Below are positions 19,530 to 24,803 of a stretch of DNA of 32,210 nucleotides, piece after piece. Position 1 is the stretch's first letter. Each line of letters starts with the position of its first letter. Source of the stretch: Candidatus Thorarchaeota archaeon (GTDB taxonomy: Archaea > Asgardarchaeota > Thorarchaeia > Thorarchaeales > Thorarchaeaceae); the NCBI GenBank assembly GCA_016839445.1, contig JAEOUG010000145.1:1-32210 (forward strand). Direction: 5' to 3'. The notes beneath the pieces were generated by a model. It worked only from the letters and a program-made list of their open reading frames with translations, searched no databases and was not told the DNA's origin. The position numbers were made by a program, and so were the translations under genes.

Positions 19530-20063
19530 ATGACTTCTGAAGTAGAGAACGAAAGCGAGAAGATTGAAGATACTCCGAAGACAGATATTGCGAACCTCGA
19601 GCCCAGGATGAAATCGGTCAATGTGACCTTCAAGGTGATTGGCAAGAGCGATGTTCGAGAGGTGTCATCCAGACGCGATGGCGACCTTCACCGCATAGTG
19701 GACGCAACGGTTGGCGACAAGACTGGCACGGTCCTAGTTCCACTCTGGGACGGCAGCATTGAAGCCGTCGAAACCGGAAAGACCTACACACTTGAAAATG
19801 GTTACACAGGTCTCTTCCGAGGGAACCTCCAATTGAAGATAGGTAGACATAGTGAACTCAAGGACTCCAAAGAAGAGATCGATGACGTGAACCTCGAGAT
19901 TGACATGTCCGCCAAGGACCACCGCCCAGAACGATCACAGCACTACTATAGGCCCAGAGGAGGCTCGGGTTATCGGGGTCAGTCATACGGTGGCGGATAC
20001 AGCGGCGGAGATGGTGATAGGCGTAGTCGTGGTCGCAGAGACAGAAGAACACGTAGTTGGTAG
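19530..20063 (+). CDS. ssb: Single OB-fold ssDNA-binding protein (crenarchaeal SSB-like) with Gly/Arg-rich tail
   Basis: IANLEP.MKSVNVTFKVI, VGDKTGTV.V.LWD, LENGYT.LFRGNLQLKIGR; disordered G/R/Y/S tail. Confidence 0.85.
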   Translation: MTSEVENESEKIEDTPKTDIANLEPRMKSVNVTFKVIGKSDVREVSSRRDGDLHRIVDATVGDKTGTVLVPLWDGSIEAVETGKTYTLENGYTGLFRGNLQLKIGRHSELKDSKEEIDDVNLEIDMSAKDHRPERSQHYYRPRGGSGYRGQSYGGGYSGGDGDRRSRGRRDRRTRSW

Positions 20064-20075
20064 TGATCAGTTTCC

Positions 20076-21032
20076 ATGGTATCTACTGGGAATAAGAGTA
20101 GACCTGCCCAGTCCGGACGAAAATCCAAATTCATCACATGTCCGGAGTGTGGCGGACGCAAGATAGCAAGAATCCCAAGAAGTGGTGAGTCTGTCTGTGC
20201 AAACTGCGGCTTGGTGATCTCGGAGCGCCGAATAGATACGGGTCCTGAATGGAGAGCGTTCACGGCTGATGAGAGAACGGCACGAACTCGCACGGGTGGA
20301 CCAGTGAAATACACTCATCATGACAAGGGCTTGGCCACTACGCTCGGCTGGCGAAACACAGACTCCTCTGGAAGGAAGCTCTCTTCCAGGCGACGTGCAG
20401 AGATAGCTCGACTGCGGAAGTGGCAGCTCAGGAGTCGTGTTCACAGCTCAGTGGACAGGAATCTCTCTCAGGCGCTATCTGAACTCGAGAGGCTCTCATC
20501 ACAACTTGAGCTGAAGCGCGGAGTCAAGGAACTTGCGGCCATGCTCTACAGAAAGGCCATTGTCAACAGGCTCATTCGCAGTAGGTCTATTGATGCACTT
20601 GTCGCCGCTGCAGTATACGCTGCTTGCAGGATTCGGCAGATTCCCCGGTCGCTGAAAGAGATTGCTGACCCCTCTCACATAGACTGGAAGAAAGTGGGCC
20701 GGCACTACAGATTGCTTGTCAGGAAGCTGAAGATCAAGATGCCTATTCCTGATCCTTCGAACTATGTTCCCAAGCTGATAACCGAGCTGGGATTGCCGGG
20801 TATCATGCAGGAAAAGGTTCTCGAAGTTCTCGATCGTGCAAAGGCTCATGGGGGGCTAATCATTGGTCGAGACCCCAGAGGACTGGCCGCGGGAGCAATT
20901 TACATTGCATCTATCCTCACAGACAATCGTGTCACCCAGAGGGAGATTGCGTCTGCAGCTGGTGTGACTGAGGTCACTGTCAGGAATCGATACAAGGATC
21001 TTGTAAGGAAACTAGAGCTATCTCTACCGTAG
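20076..21032 (+). CDS. tfb: Transcription initiation factor IIB (TFB)
   Basis: Zn ribbon CPECG...CANCG, B-reader GPEWRAFT, two cyclin repeats, TQREIA..AGVTEVTVRNRYK. Confidence 0.97.
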   Translation: MVSTGNKSRPAQSGRKSKFITCPECGGRKIARIPRSGESVCANCGLVISERRIDTGPEWRAFTADERTARTRTGGPVKYTHHDKGLATTLGWRNTDSSGRKLSSRRRAEIARLRKWQLRSRVHSSVDRNLSQALSELERLSSQLELKRGVKELAAMLYRKAIVNRLIRSRSIDALVAAAVYAACRIRQIPRSLKEIADPSHIDWKKVGRHYRLLVRKLKIKMPIPDPSNYVPKLITELGLPGIMQEKVLEVLDRAKAHGGLIIGRDPRGLAAGAIYIASILTDNRVTQREIASAAGVTEVTVRNRYKDLVRKLELSLP

Positions 21033-21057: not shown

Positions 21058-22170
21058 CTAGTCCAGTTCAAGCTTGGTGTCTTCTAGCCAAGTCATACGT
21101 GGATCGACTGGATGTGTGAAGATCCGGCCGACTCTTTCCGGATCCTTCGCCTGATGATACTTGAAAACGAACACTCCATCATGTATGCCCAGTATCTCGA
21201 TTTTCCCGGTGGGATGTGACATGATGAAGCGGAATCTCTTACCATGACCGTCGAGATTCCTGTCCACACCCTCAATGATCCTCACGCCATCAACAAGTGG
21301 AACCTGAAACTGGGCCTTCACTCGCTTTACGGGTCTGCACTGAAACACATAGTATGGCAGAACTCCAATAGTCAGCAGGCCTCTCAACAGTTCAGTCATT
21401 TCCTCGAGCGAGTCATTTACTCCCTTGAGCAACACAGTCTGATTGCCGACAATGATGCCTGCCTTCTGAAGCCTTTCCACTGCCGCCCTTGATTTCTTTG
21501 AGATCTCTCTACGGTGGTTGAATTGTGTGACAACATAGATCCGTACTTTGCTGGATGAGTATTCTCTTAGCATTTCAACGAGGTTCTCATCCATGAGAAT
21601 CCGATCCGGAAACGTGACTGGCACGCGGGTTCCGAATCTAATGAAGTCCAGATGTGGGATTACTGACAGTGGGTGCAGGATGCTCTCCAGCTCTGAGTTG
21701 GAGAGGACAAAGGGGTCTCCTCCCGTTACGAGTACATTGTTTATCTCGGAGTGGCCTTCAATGTAGTTCGCAACTTCTCGGATGTCCTGAAGGACCTCGT
21801 CCGTTTCTACTCCCACAAGTCTCTTTCTGAAACAGTGTCGGCAGTATGTTGCACACTCATTCGTTGAGAGAATGACTGCAGTCTGTCTGTATTTGTGTTG
21901 TAGACCTGGCATGACGGTGTTCGAGCGCTCTCCACTCGTATCATAGGTGCCCTTTGGGGACTTCTCGCTTGGATTTGGCACCGCCAGTTTTCTAATAGGG
22001 TCCTTTCTGCTCGACCGTTCAATGAGTGACATATAGTACTGCGAAACACGAACTGGGTGTTTCTTGCATATCTCCTCGAGCGCATGCTTCTCTGTTTCAT
22101 CTACGTCTAGGAATGAGGAAAGACCCTCCACTGACGTAACGCAATCATCTAGGAGAGATTCCCATCTCAT
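21058..22170 (-). CDS. kamA: KamA family radical SAM protein (lysine 2,3-aminomutase-like)
   Basis: GLQHKY, CATYCRHCFRKR (CxxxCxxC), VTGGDP, RFGTRVPV..P.RI, NQTVLLKGVND, PYYVFQC; substrate not certain. Confidence 0.88.
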   Translation of the reverse strand: MRWESLLDDCVTSVEGLSSFLDVDETEKHALEEICKKHPVRVSQYYMSLIERSSRKDPIRKLAVPNPSEKSPKGTYDTSGERSNTVMPGLQHKYRQTAVILSTNECATYCRHCFRKRLVGVETDEVLQDIREVANYIEGHSEINNVLVTGGDPFVLSNSELESILHPLSVIPHLDFIRFGTRVPVTFPDRILMDENLVEMLREYSSSKVRIYVVTQFNHRREISKKSRAAVERLQKAGIIVGNQTVLLKGVNDSLEEMTELLRGLLTIGVLPYYVFQCRPVKRVKAQFQVPLVDGVRIIEGVDRNLDGHGKRFRFIMSHPTGKIEILGIHDGVFVFKYHQAKDPERVGRIFTHPVDPRMTWLEDTKLELD

Positions 22171-22179
22171 GGTTTCACT

Positions 22180-22353
22180 CTACTCATTGCTTGGTTGAGC
22201 AGGAGGATCACTTGTCATTCGAGCTATGATTGCCATCTTCCTGTCCAGCTCAGGCCAGTCTGCCAACCTTCTTCTCTCTCTCAGTCTATCCTTTTCATTC
22301 TCTGTCCAATTGGTAATTGGCGGTTCGTCTGTTAGTTCTGTTCTCTTCTGCAT
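22180..22353 (-). CDS. Small hypothetical protein directly upstream of kamA
   Basis: 57 aa from ATG 22353 (MQKRTELT...), preceded by RBS AGGTGAT; stops 9 nt before the kamA ATG. Confidence 0.5.
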   Translation of the reverse strand: MQKRTELTDEPPITNWTENEKDRLRERRRLADWPELDRKMAIIARMTSDPPAQPSNE

Positions 22354-22570
22354 GATTATCACCTGACAATGCGGCCACGGCGCACCTGTGACACAATGAG
22401 GGCTTTTCTGCCGTTCCGCTGTCTGGCTGTTGCTTTGCCCGCTCTCGCCTGTAGGGTCGAGAATTGCCAGTGTCGTTCCCTTGAGCGGGTTAGTCCTTCC
22501 GTTGGATAGCTTCTATCTGGAGCCGATTCTTATTAGTCTTATCATTTTCTTTAAATAGGGTATGATGACT

Positions 22571-22636: not shown

Positions 22637-23428
22637 TCAGATCTCTGCTCGTACGAAGAAGATGGGTTCTACTGGGGAGTAGCTGAAGCCCATCCTTTCG
22701 TAGAGTTTCTGAGCTGCGAGATTGTTTGCGAAATAGTGAAGGATGGCAAGGTCCGAACGTTGCAGTATGTCTTCTGCTACGGCCTTGATGCATGCCTCTG
22801 CGTATCCCTTTCTTCTGTGGTCTGGATGAGTTGCCACGTTCCCAATCTCTGAACCGTAGTGTGTCATGTAGTGGACGCCAGCCACACTCACTATCCCGTA
22901 GTCCTCAGTGATGATTCCATAGAAGGGTCCGAGTTCGAGAGCGGTCGGCGTCCATGCTGGCGTACCACAGACTCTGTAAAGCTCCTTGAGTTCTTCTGAA
23001 TCATCCTGGGTCATTCTCACCGGCTCCGACTTACACTCGCACCGGAGTTCCGTTTCAAAATCAGCGTACATTTGCTTCTCCAACGTCGGGTCTACTTCCT
23101 TACACAGTGATTGAAGCTGCTCTAGCTGTTCCTGCGTGCAGATGGCAACGAAGCCCGACATCGAGAGCCTATCTCTGAACTCGTCCATCAGACGCTTCAG
23201 GTATGAGGTGTTCTCACTCCAGAATGCAGTAGCAACGAAGTCCAGGTCGCTGTAGAGGGAGAATACTGCCCGAATCCTGCCGTTGTCTCTGAGGACTTTC
23301 ACATCGCACCACTCGAGCAGCTGCGTGCAGTCAGCAATCAGAGTTATGTTCTCCAGAGGCTTCTCTGCAAGCATACGAAGGACCTCCATGGAGTTCTGAT
23401 CAGTTAGGGGTTCGATTTCTATAGGCAA
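22637..23428 (-). CDS. GNAT family N-acetyltransferase (FR47-like C-terminal domain)
   Basis: IVSVAGVH, EIGNVATHPDHRRKGYA, NLAAQKLYERMGF. Confidence 0.9.
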   Translation of the reverse strand: MPIEIEPLTDQNSMEVLRMLAEKPLENITLIADCTQLLEWCDVKVLRDNGRIRAVFSLYSDLDFVATAFWSENTSYLKRLMDEFRDRLSMSGFVAICTQEQLEQLQSLCKEVDPTLEKQMYADFETELRCECKSEPVRMTQDDSEELKELYRVCGTPAWTPTALELGPFYGIITEDYGIVSVAGVHYMTHYGSEIGNVATHPDHRRKGYAEACIKAVAEDILQRSDLAILHYFANNLAAQKLYERMGFSYSPVEPIFFVRAEI

Positions 23429-23534: not shown

Positions 23535-23581
23535 CACAAAAGAAGAAGAAACCGTCCTGAGCCTGCCGGCCGAGGACGGTT
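23535..23581 (-). terminator. Stem-loop terminator of the acidic micro-gene
   Basis: Perfect 9-bp arms AACCGTCCT (23550-23558) / AGGACGGTT (23573-23581); followed on the minus strand by TCTTCTTCTTTTGT. Confidence 0.7.
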
Positions 23582-23607: not shown

Positions 23608-23730
23608 CTACCAGTCTTCGTCGTCATCGTCGAAGTCTTCGTCGTCATCGTCATCCCAGTCGTCATCATCGAGATCTTCATCCCAGTCGTCATCATCTTC
23701 TGGGCCTGTGAAACGATAGCTGTACTTCAT
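23608..23730 (-). CDS. 40-aa Asp/Glu-rich micro-protein with DDDDW-type repeats (absent from the ORF track)
   Basis: Hand translation MKYSYRFTGPEDDDDWDEDLDDDDWDDDDDEDFDDDDEDW*; RBS AAGGTG 8 nt upstream of ATG; terminator 27 nt downstream. Confidence 0.75.
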   Translation of the reverse strand: MKYSYRFTGPEDDDDWDEDLDDDDWDDDDDEDFDDDDEDW

Positions 23731-23966
23731 GGTGATTACACCTTTTCCGTCCCTGCCTACCACAGAAACAGTTATGCGTGACTGGAACCGTCAACACATC
23801 TCATATTGCCTTTTCAGCAAACTTCGTTGTCCAAAACCCTCTGAAGACGGCAAATCGCGTTTTCGACGCCATTGATTGAACAAGTGGGTTTTCCATCTCC
23901 ACAAAGAAGAAATACAGACCTGTTACACACGCGACGTGGTGTCACCTTAGGGAACTTGTCTATGAT

Positions 23967-24803
23967 GTGCAGTCTATGAGCGGGATTGAGCCTCAGGACT
24001 CCTCTGCTGAGGAGCTCGTTCAGCAGGGTCGGCCAACTATCATTGTTCTACTTGAGCGTAGCGAGGGCCTGAGGGAGGCAGCGCGACTTCTCGCACAAAT
24101 CCAGGGGATGCAGAGAATTGCGAGAGGCGTATTTCAATACAACATGAGCTATACAAAACTTCGCACATCGAGGGATCTGCCCAAGCACGTGGCACTTCGG
24201 AAGACGCGTTCAATCCCTAGGGTGCGAGAGGCTGTGGGGGACGCCTCACCTGCCAGGACCTATGCGCTTGTCACATATCGATTCGAAAATCCCACCGCCA
24301 AACAGAAGAAGGTCGTTCAAAGACTCAGACGAAGAGCCCCGGCTGTCAGATTAAGACCCGGCGTACTTCTCTTCCCCCATATAAGGGCTGGAGAATCGAG
24401 GAAGCAGTTTGGAGTTGAGTCAGAGCGGCCACCCATAGGCTCACTCGACTTCACAAGGAGACTGTCCGAGCTTTGCGCGCAGGTTCACCGGCTGACAAAA
24501 CTCCGCCTGGCTAATCCGGGCGACACCATGTTCGTCAACGAAGCAATCGAGTCGACAATCGCGTCCGCCTCGGAAGCCATGGAAGAGAGGCTTAGAGTCC
24601 TGAGGGGGGCCACCAAGGATGAGGGCATTCCAACAAGGAAACTCAGGGAGCGGTATAAGGAGATCTCAAGAGACTTCAAGGATCTCAAGATGACGGCATC
24701 CGTCATCCGCCATGTTTGGGGATACGACTCAGGTAGTCGCTTGAGGCGTGTCTATGACCTCCTTCTCGGTACACGGAGGGCAATCTCCGACAGAGCGGCA
24801 TGA
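23967..24803 (+). CDS. Basic hypothetical protein, possible PaaX/Cas2-like ferredoxin-fold central domain
   Basis: 278 aa, Arg-rich; TYALVTYRF...KKVVQRLRRR..VRLRPGVLLFP weakly resembles that domain; the ORF is likely real, the domain call is weak. Confidence 0.55.
   Translation: MQSMSGIEPQDSSAEELVQQGRPTIIVLLERSEGLREAARLLAQIQGMQRIARGVFQYNMSYTKLRTSRDLPKHVALRKTRSIPRVREAVGDASPARTYALVTYRFENPTAKQKKVVQRLRRRAPAVRLRPGVLLFPHIRAGESRKQFGVESERPPIGSLDFTRRLSELCAQVHRLTKLRLANPGDTMFVNEAIESTIASASEAMEERLRVLRGATKDEGIPTRKLRERYKEISRDFKDLKMTASVIRHVWGYDSGSRLRRVYDLLLGTRRAISDRAA

Follow-up and report, generated by a model that had tools for sequence, protein, structure and literature searches.

An acidic microprotein with spaced tryptophans and its conserved basic neighbour in Candidatus Thorarchaeota

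The micro-ORF and its product

The stretch of DNA considered here, termed the window, comprises 32,210 nt of a Candidatus Thorarchaeota genome. It carries, on the minus strand, a micro-open reading frame (micro-ORF) of 40 codons whose predicted product is an acidic tract punctuated by Trp (acid/Trp) and, across a divergent intergenic region, a gene for a strongly basic protein, referred to below as the partner. Judged by comparison with related sequences, the micro-ORF is a real gene under purifying selection, and its neighbourhood with the partner gene is likewise conserved. The charges of the two products in the window are opposite, being about -23.5 for the microprotein and about +23 (+22.9) for the partner. 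The microprotein, the partner and the module that they appear to form have no family model and no description in the literature searched, and the function proposed below is what we infer. A literature search on microproteins of Thorarchaeota returned nothing, and neither did broader searches for such peptides. Passages of two preprints (10.64898/2026.07.02.735847 and 10.64898/2025.12.15.694180) make no mention of them; the supplementary tables of these preprints, including proteomics, might hold peptides of relevance.

The micro-ORF, the partner gene and the features attached to them, numbered from window position 1, are as follows.

23608..23730, minus strand: acid/Trp micro-ORF, 40 aa and a TAG stop (direct translation and comparative loci)
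23967..24803, plus strand: conserved partner gene, 278 aa from a GTG start or 275 aa from the ATG at 23976 (profile and structure model)
23731..23966, no strand: divergent intergenic region of 236 nt, separating the micro-ORF and the partner gene
23739..23745, minus strand: Shine-Dalgarno (SD)-like AAAGGTG, 8 nt upstream of the ATG (read from the sequence)
23613..23652, minus strand: in-frame tandem duplication of 21 nt (7 codons), 1.9 copies (period 21, 100% matches)
23536..23581, minus strand: hairpin (stems 23550-23558 and 23573-23581) with a U-rich tract (23536-23549), between the micro-ORF and the GNAT gene

The micro-ORF opens with an ATG at 23730, closes with a TAG at 23608-23610 and encodes MKYSYRFTGPEDDDDWDEDLDDDDWDDDDDEDFDDDDEDW. 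By direct count, 25 of the C-terminal 30 residues are Asp or Glu, with W, L, W, F and W as the interrupting residues. The aromatics of the tract are W16, W25, F33 and the C-terminal W40, and the N-terminus reads MKYSYRFTGP. The Asp and Glu codons are mixed (12 GAC, 9 GAT and 4 GAA). On the DNA of the micro-ORF, Tandem Repeats Finder (TRF) returned imperfect short-period arrays and the single perfect 21-nt duplication, nothing else. A simple microsatellite is ruled out because the codons are mixed and the arrays, apart from that one duplication, are imperfect. The duplication is a likely source of the extra length of the window copy, which has 40 aa against the usual 25-27 aa.

At the position equivalent to that of the SD-like motif, relatives carry GAGGTGA, AAGGTGA or GGAGGTG. 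An alternative GTG start at 23763 would give 51 aa; the ATG is preferred because of the placement of the SD-like motif and the N-termini of the relatives. The GGTG of this motif and a CACC just before the ATG make up a small inverted repeat (23731-23742, GGTGTAATCACC), which would form a small hairpin across the ribosome-binding site. Similar pairing (TCACCTAAGGTGA) is seen in two loci, L084 and L088, of family f12 (f1, f2, f9, f12, f13, f15, f18, f31 and f32 being tool-assigned labels for families within the phylum), and is not general among the relatives. The whole 2.9-Mb assembly was also scanned for ORFs of 14-70 aa in which D/E make up 55% or more and two or more residues are aromatic. 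Three acidic micro-ORF frames were returned, and only that of the window is Trp-punctuated and has an SD-like motif.

An earlier first-pass annotation, made from the sequence, had described a 40-aa ORF with 25 acidic residues among its last 30, a ribosome-binding site, and mixed codons that set it apart from a pure microsatellite. The description of the frame proved exact, the ribosome-binding site is present as the AAAGGTG motif, and both the codon counts and TRF agree on the last point. Its further claim that the frame has its own hairpin terminator is confirmed only in part. The hairpin (23550-23581), followed by UUCUUCUUCUUUU, is indeed there, with a folding energy of -27.6 kcal/mol (z -2.58) that none of 200 shuffles equalled. 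However, a consensus terminator scan did not flag it, and transcription termination in archaea needs no hairpin; the structure is, therefore, a candidate terminator.

Conservation of the micro-ORF and its basic neighbour

The phylum-wide profile and pattern scans covered 400 genomes and the genus-level scans 28 genomes, and related genomes are non-independent samples. Direct protein searches with the 40-aa product matched in 2 of 41 genomes, namely its own and one other at E 0.62, and a homologous-protein search gave 14 candidates, none of them scoring. Such searches fail because of the low complexity of the peptide. Patterns at the level of DNA were more productive. W-[DE]4-W was found in 19 of the 28 same-genus genomes (34 matches, against 0 for the control), and [DE]4-W-[DE]3 in 218 of the 400 phylum-wide genomes, against 2 matches for the control. 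Look-alikes of the microprotein in the ESM Atlas fall in unnamed clusters with scores of 0.87 or less and are a lead only. Records that carry a name and contain a micro-ORF of this type are titled Candidatus Thorarchaeota, which, together with the nearest Atlas clusters of the partner, indirectly supports an Asgard origin of the window.

The survey of loci around partner homologues examined 50 loci, and 47 acid/Trp micro-ORFs were compared. Such a micro-ORF adjoins the partner homologue in 44 of the 50 loci, and three of the six that do not match lie at contig ends. The distance between the two is 131-429 nt, with second micro-ORFs in two f32 loci about 825 nt away. The orientation is divergent in 27 cases (131-377 nt) and tandem downstream in 19 (358-825 nt). 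As the orientation varies by lineage, the adjacency has outlived rearrangement, and with only one such ORF in the 2.9-Mb genome of the window, adjacency by chance is negligible.

The frames themselves bear further marks of genes. An SD-like motif lies 4-16 nt upstream of 43 of the 47 micro-ORFs, against a background of 11.5%, which is the share of all ATG triplets in those loci preceded by such a motif. The C-terminal residue is Trp in 38 of the 47 and Phe in five, the lengths are 25-57 aa, and in the micro-ORF alignment both M1 and the C-terminal W are invariant. The ratio of nonsynonymous to synonymous change (pN/pS) in same-length pairs, which are likewise non-independent, is 0.17 in one set (24 pairs; pS 0.83, pN 0.14) and 0.35 in another (14 pairs).

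The N-terminus of the window copy (…YRFTGPEDDDDW) is closer to the f12 type (MIKYHYPPEDDEEDW…EDDW), and also to forms in other families (…LFGPEDDDEDW…), than to the MHFDD type of the same genus. The acid run begins at residue 11 in the window, at residue 4 in same-genus relatives and at residue 4-10 among the relatives.

The partner protein of the window has an isoelectric point (pI) of 10.9. Among 34 aligned homologues, the pI is 10.0-11.4 and the net charge +17 to +40, and R81, K115, R119, R178 and P137 are near-invariant. The partner profile matches 87 of the 400 genomes, distributed as f1 59/85, f12 17/19, f13 3/3, f31 2/3, f32 3/5 and f15 1/4, with no match in the 135 genomes of f9 or the 22 of f18. 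Since the window's class contains only families f1 and f2, and the other families belong elsewhere, the pairing of micro-ORF and partner spans classes.

AlphaFold2, run on the partner alignment, gave a model with a predicted local distance difference test score (pLDDT) of 88.3 and a predicted TM-score (pTM) of 0.83. Its two tandem ferredoxin-like beta-alpha-beta-beta-alpha-beta domains span about 24-79 and 98-181, and residues 186-277 form a three-helix bundle at the C-terminus. With the whole model, the best Foldseek match was E. coli PaaX 8a39 (E 2.7e-3, probability 0.89, TM 0.26). The same structure was the best VIA-align match of the N-terminal model (Z 7.0, root-mean-square deviation 1.9, 58 residues aligned), followed by Cas2 proteins at Z 6.5 and Lrp/AsnC RAM domains at about 6 (5.8-6.5 for the two groups together), while Foldseek matched the N-terminal model to engineered ferredoxin folds and Cas2c; all of these structural scores sit within generic ferredoxin-like similarity. 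VIA-align of the full model was uninformative, since matches to three-helix bundles (spectrin repeats, Z about 12) dominated the output, and a search of solved structures with the partner profile gave coiled-coil noise alone (best E 0.0053). The partner resembles the PaaX regulators in its helical C-terminal domain, with PaaX 8a39 as its top, though weak, structural match, but has a second ferredoxin-like domain in place of their winged-helix N-terminal domain.

No family of Pfam, NCBIfam or PADLOC matches the partner protein of the window, which has no PaaX or PaaX_C match in Pfam either. PF20803 (PaaX_M), the model of the central Cas2-like domain of PaaX, matches 5 of 53 partner relatives, three of them above the 24-bit cutoff (best 33.2 bits), and does not match the window protein, while neither that protein nor any of the 53 relatives has a Pfam match to a winged-helix N-terminal domain. 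The partner family amounts to 108 clusters among 1.84 billion representatives, and no fused forms are seen, as no cluster exceeds 295 aa. Its nearest clusters in the ESM Atlas come from Candidatus Thorarchaeota and are annotated as hypothetical proteins. For a 56%-identical relative, one source gives the name 'tRNA pseudouridine synthase TruA'; this name was rejected, as none of 7 members has a pseudouridine-synthase Pfam match at E <= 10. In seven genomes of genus g25 (G368, G371, G375, G376, G377, G379 and G383), a single in-frame TGA lies inside the partner match, which could mean that the codon is recoded, that the gene is split or that the genomes share a defect.

In 28 of the 50 partner loci, the acid/Trp micro-ORF is accompanied by a micro-ORF of the opposite charge. 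This poly-Lys micro-ORF (M[AGS]KKK…KKK-stop, 17-31 aa) has an SD-like GTGAT of its own and no Pfam family match. It is exemplified by MAKKKPAKKAKPATTSKKKK and by the frames at L104:2713-2775 (+), L086:2778-2873 (+) and L094:1225-1296 (-). In f1, f31 and f32, it is co-directional and 46-136 nt downstream of the acid ORF, with a spacing fixed at 72-73 nt in six of those same-genus loci that were examined, and in f12 it has the partner gene on one side and the acid ORF on the other. Where a family has no partner, single micro-ORFs fuse a Lys-rich N-terminus to an acid/Trp tail (e.g. MKGPKDKKKDEEEDWDDDDDDW…), and in f32, where the partner is present, such fused micro-ORFs lie beside it. The acid and Lys charge types would thus be tied functionally. 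In one f12 genome, a 22-aa Arg/Lys ORF (MRKKWKKKRARKIRRKRRKKQK, L100:3571-3639, plus strand) is found 0.7 kb from the module; it is weakly like ribosomal protein L41 (PF05162, 14.8 bits, under the cutoff).

An alignment of 10 intergenic regions from related loci revealed the invariant blocks TAATATCTTTGTC, GGTGACAC and TTTACTC. The window resembles them, as judged by eye and without statistics, in AAAGGCAATATGAG on the minus strand (23800-23813), in ACAAAGAAGAAATA (about 23901-23914) and in the palindrome GGTGTCACC (23938-23946).

Neighbouring genes and similar endings on other proteins

Two genes on the strand of the micro-ORF follow it in the window.

22637..23428, minus strand: GNAT acetyltransferase gene, 180 nt downstream of the micro-ORF (context only)
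21058..22170, minus strand: KamA-family radical SAM aminomutase-like gene (TIGR00238, 234.8 bits, cutoff 199.2; context only)

The GNAT gene has orthologues in 18 of the 28 genus genomes, and a micro-ORF (e.g. MHFDDDDLWEEEDWDDDEWEDDDDDW) is present just upstream of it in 11 of 17 loci. This genus micro-ORF is a paralogous copy, and the link with GNAT is confined to one genus. The KamA gene adjoins the micro-ORF in the window only, other genes being there in the related loci examined. Together on one strand, with a 60-aa ORF between them (22180-22362), the KamA-like and GNAT genes recall the ablA/ablB pair of beta-lysine synthesis; the likeness is far under the equivalog cutoffs (AblA 242.9 versus 525.4, ablB 19.1 versus 205.1). 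Further away on the plus strand (19530-21032), at 2.5-4 kb from the micro-ORF, come an SSB-like OB-fold gene (PF21473) and, directly after it, a TFIIB/TFB gene.

The ending of the microprotein also occurs on full-length proteins. In this genome, the other clear [DE]3-W endings are only those of TBP and of a Zn-ribbon-like protein with an acidic tail. TBP (PF00352; G000:C131:28015-28638, minus strand) ends in …EGEDWGVTYEEEDDW, and an acid run with Trp closes 19 of 20 complete same-genus TBP frames and none of six from other families. The Cys-rich Zn-ribbon-like protein (G000:C25:20321-20740, plus strand) has a long acidic tail ending in …DLDEDW and a weak FYDLN_acid match (17.2 bits, cutoff 23.9). 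In another family, the PCNA homologues (PF00705) carry acid/Trp C-terminal tails of 30-40 residues (…DEEDWDEEDEEFEDWDDDDE), at L061:640-1560 and L064:619-1530 and also in L068, L070 and L072, with an RFC-like AAA+ gene following. The [DE]n-W-COOH ending of TBP and the acid/Trp tails of the PCNA homologues show that the ending is used as a protein motif. DDDDDW-stop is found on unrelated bacterial proteins as well (L132-L211), for example on membrane proteins of about 445 aa in Lachnospiraceae and Eubacterium, mycobacterial proteins of about 450 aa, cyanobacterial proteins of about 700 aa (…QDNWDDDDDW) and Obscuribacterales proteins of about 200 aa.

Acidic tails of this general kind are known from DNA-binding proteins and set a precedent for the occupation of a DNA-binding site by an acidic-aromatic C-terminus. 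The E. coli SSB C-peptide occupies the OB-domain at the single-stranded DNA (ssDNA) site (PMC3936761), and the acidic tail of T7 gp2.5 regulates the DNA binding of gp2.5 (PMC10359462). The microprotein shares with them an acidic run and a terminal aromatic residue with a free carboxylate. However, those tails act in cis, whereas the microprotein is a separate gene product, longer and multivalent, with three or four aromatics.

A proposed charge-pairing module and its rivals

The explanation that we regard as the best, and hold tentatively, is that the microprotein is a disordered polyanion whose Trp anchors would allow it to bind and neutralise basic partners, or to mimic nucleic acid for them. 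It would be free-standing and intrinsically disordered, with a net charge of about -17 to -24, three or four aromatic anchors and a near-invariant C-terminal Trp. It is proposed that the module consists of this microprotein, the strongly basic protein with its tandem PaaX_M/Cas2-like domains (+17 to +40) and, in most lineages though not in the window, the poly-Lys microprotein. The peptide would bind the basic partners in trans through electrostatics and cation-pi contacts of Trp with Lys or Arg. As a nucleic-acid mimic, or as a charge-neutralising chaperone or antagonist, it might set the free pool of the partner for nucleic-acid binding, and the shared divergent promoter region may keep microprotein and partner balanced. 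Of these steps, the binding of basic partners, the mimicry of nucleic acid and the effect on regulation are what we infer here.

A polyanionic disordered protein is paired with a Lys-rich polycation in the case of prothymosin-alpha and linker histone H1. The likeness lies in the Lys/Ala/Pro-rich micro-ORFs of related loci (e.g. MAKKKPAKKAKPATTSKKKK), which resemble H1-tail-like repeats. The putative archaeal pair differs in being two side-by-side microproteins of 20-40 aa plus a third, folded basic protein, and the Trp anchors of the microprotein have no counterpart in the eukaryotic pair.

Several observations weigh against the binding of basic partners by a stable polyanion. Across 30 loci, the charge of the partner does not correlate with that of the micro-ORF (Spearman 0.04, p 0.84), which gives no hint that charges are matched stoichiometrically. 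The acid/Trp pattern is also frequent in families that lack the partner (100 of 135 genomes in f9 and 14 of 22 in f18), and the function of the peptide can, therefore, not depend on the partner alone. When 43 loci of those families were clustered, no conserved neighbour of the acid/Trp micro-ORFs emerged, and gene context was kept within genera only. The poly-Lys element is absent from the window and from its whole assembly. Homology among such low-complexity peptides between classes cannot be proven by sequence statistics. N-terminal acidic runs, moreover, reportedly destabilise translating ribosomes (PMC9718836 and PMC12673854), so that a stable product is not guaranteed. A complex prediction for partner and microprotein scored 0.01; it was run without controls and weighs neither way.

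This last property of acidic runs underlies the main rival to a trans-acting polyanion, a cis-acting sensor ORF, which we consider unlikely, though it deserves serious attention. Here, the translation of hard-to-translate acidic codons would matter rather than the peptide, and stalling or abortion would set the expression of neighbours, i.e. the poly-Lys ORF in relatives and GNAT/KamA in the window. The micro-ORF is short and its acid run early (residue 11, or residue 4 in the same genus), a setting that is described as the most destabilising one (PMC12673854, PMC9718836 and 10.1101/2021.02.02.429294). The hairpin and U-tract between the ORF and GNAT in the window have the anatomy of an attenuator, and the poly-Lys ORF of f1, f31 and f32 lies co-directionally at 46-136 nt downstream. 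Poly-Lys is itself problematic for ribosomes. However, the acid ORF of f12 is the last of its strand run and a convergent gene comes next, which leaves nothing downstream to regulate. The aromatic positions and the C-terminal Trp are conserved, though an acid run alone would destabilise; the same ending is present on TBP; and the versions of 45-86 aa that other families carry resemble ordinary disordered proteins. Leader ORFs of the MgtL type, Mg2+ sensors of bacteria that act by intrinsic ribosome destabilisation, are likewise short, with consecutive acidic residues close to the N-terminus, but the micro-ORF differs from them in having no constant co-directional downstream gene and in its conserved aromatics and terminal Trp, a motif common to full-length proteins. 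An improbable alternative, also named by the first-pass annotation, is a cation buffer or carrier. The ligands of the polycarboxylate would then be polyamines or metals such as Mg2+ and Ca2+, and its association with basic proteins would be incidental. The extreme carboxylate density (25 of 30 residues) is in its favour, but it leaves unexplained the conserved Trp spacing, the terminal Trp and the conserved adjacency to the basic protein and the poly-Lys ORF, and no transporter or metal-homeostasis gene is found among the conserved neighbours. That the peptide is a precursor or scaffold of a ribosomally synthesised and post-translationally modified peptide (RiPP) or a peptide-derived cofactor, with the KamA-family radical SAM enzyme and the GNAT encoded downstream as its modifying enzymes, is hardly probable at all. 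Both genes follow on the same strand in the window, and the genus paralogue stands just upstream of GNAT in 11 of 17 loci. The idea nevertheless fails because, among the loci examined, the adjacency of KamA is unique to the window; the GNAT link, too, is restricted to one genus, and the partner kept across classes is a basic, non-enzymatic-looking protein. As for a chance open frame across a GAY-rich repeat, i.e. no gene at all, the DNA is of low complexity with antisense frames also open, the frame is below gene-caller length limits and direct protein search finds almost nothing. Such a chance is next to nil, as relatives from more than one class share the start, SD-like motif, frame, Trp positions and Trp-stop, synonymous change is saturated against few nonsynonymous changes (pS 0.83 versus pN 0.14), and the control patterns gave 0 against 34 matches and 2 against 218 of 400 genomes.

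The first-pass annotation had likened the tract to DSS1/Sem1 and to the acidic-Trp motif of the WASP family, and had suggested a nucleic-acid mimic or interaction hub. The eukaryotic DSS1/Sem1, about 70-90 aa long, combines two acidic-aromatic sites with a linker and a C-terminal helix, and it may act in part as an ssDNA mimic. An archaeal counterpart of DSS1/Sem1 or of the WASP type, serving as a hub for the proteasome, RPA/SSB or actin-related proteins, is very improbable. The compositional likeness of an acidic tract with spaced Trp, the Asgard host, and the SSB-like OB-fold and TFB genes 2.5-4 kb away speak for it. Both DSS1/Sem1 and the microprotein are small, disordered and acidic, with spaced Trp/Phe. 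However, the microprotein of the window has no Pfam family at E <= 0.01, and none of 31 members has a DSS1_SEM1 or WH2 match even at E <= 10, where the composition filters of HMMER may mask weak DSS1_SEM1 matches. The microprotein is roughly half the length of DSS1 or less; its single continuous acid/Trp tract runs to the C-terminus and leaves no residues for a helix. The layout of a WASP-family VCA region, in which WH2 and connector helices come before the acidic-Trp segment, is not found either, with only 10 non-acidic N-terminal residues and no WH2 match. The resemblance is thus compositional, because the proteins have 25-57 aa and the remaining DSS1 or VCA elements are absent, as the annotation itself had allowed. 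The roles of DSS1/Sem1 (PF05160) are in the proteasome lid and the BRCA2, RPA and TREX-2 complexes (PMC6218214). Its partners are PCI or OB-fold proteins, whereas the conserved neighbour of the microprotein is a PaaX_M/Cas2-like basic protein and not a proteasome, RPA or actin-family gene. A literature search linking Asgard archaea with Sem1 gave nothing in the library covered. Its suggestion of a nucleic-acid mimic or an interaction role lives on in the tentative reading preferred above. Two other points of the annotation fared better. The reading frame, whose loss in relatives would have spoken against a gene, is widely preserved there along with its start, SD-like motif and Trp-stop, and the neighbouring basic protein, named as a candidate for binding, turned out to be the conserved genomic partner.

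A type II toxin-antitoxin (TA) or defence system was considered and rejected, since the micro-ORF is either divergent from the partner gene (27) or 358-825 nt downstream of it (19), whereas a type II antitoxin gene would directly precede or overlap its toxin gene within one operon. PADLOC, whose TA library is incomplete, has no family for four partner proteins (of the window and related loci), the relative P0053 or the microprotein.

The polyanion reading has a bolder extension, which is distinctly speculative. The free-standing acidic-aromatic microproteins of the whole phylum might be prokaryotic precursors or counterparts of the acidic-aromatic linear motifs of eukaryotes, among them DSS1, acidic activation domains and acidic tails. 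With the poly-Lys microproteins and the Cas2/PaaX_M-like basic protein encoded next to them, they would build very tight, disordered polyelectrolyte complexes or condensates, and their [DE]n-Trp-COOH ending could compete with the TBP tail and, in other families, with that of PCNA for a common reader, thereby tuning the access of basic proteins to nucleic acids.

Archaeal microproteins that fall under the length limits of gene callers are largely unmapped. Here, the conservation of one of them extends over classes of the lineage that is closest to eukaryotes, with a fixed partner of no known family, and in relatives it is paired with an oppositely charged poly-Lys microprotein. The evidence suggests that the acid/Trp microprotein and its basic neighbour form a charge-pairing module not described in the literature searched, and it speaks against kinship with DSS1. 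If the ORF were instead a translation sensor, the sensing of ribosome destabilisation would be extended to archaea. If the peptides bind as proposed, they would make up a minimal polyanion/polycation system that regulates a nucleic-acid-binding protein and is amenable to genetics, and would allow one to test whether the acidic-aromatic interaction motifs typical of regulators in eukaryotes were already used in Asgard archaea.

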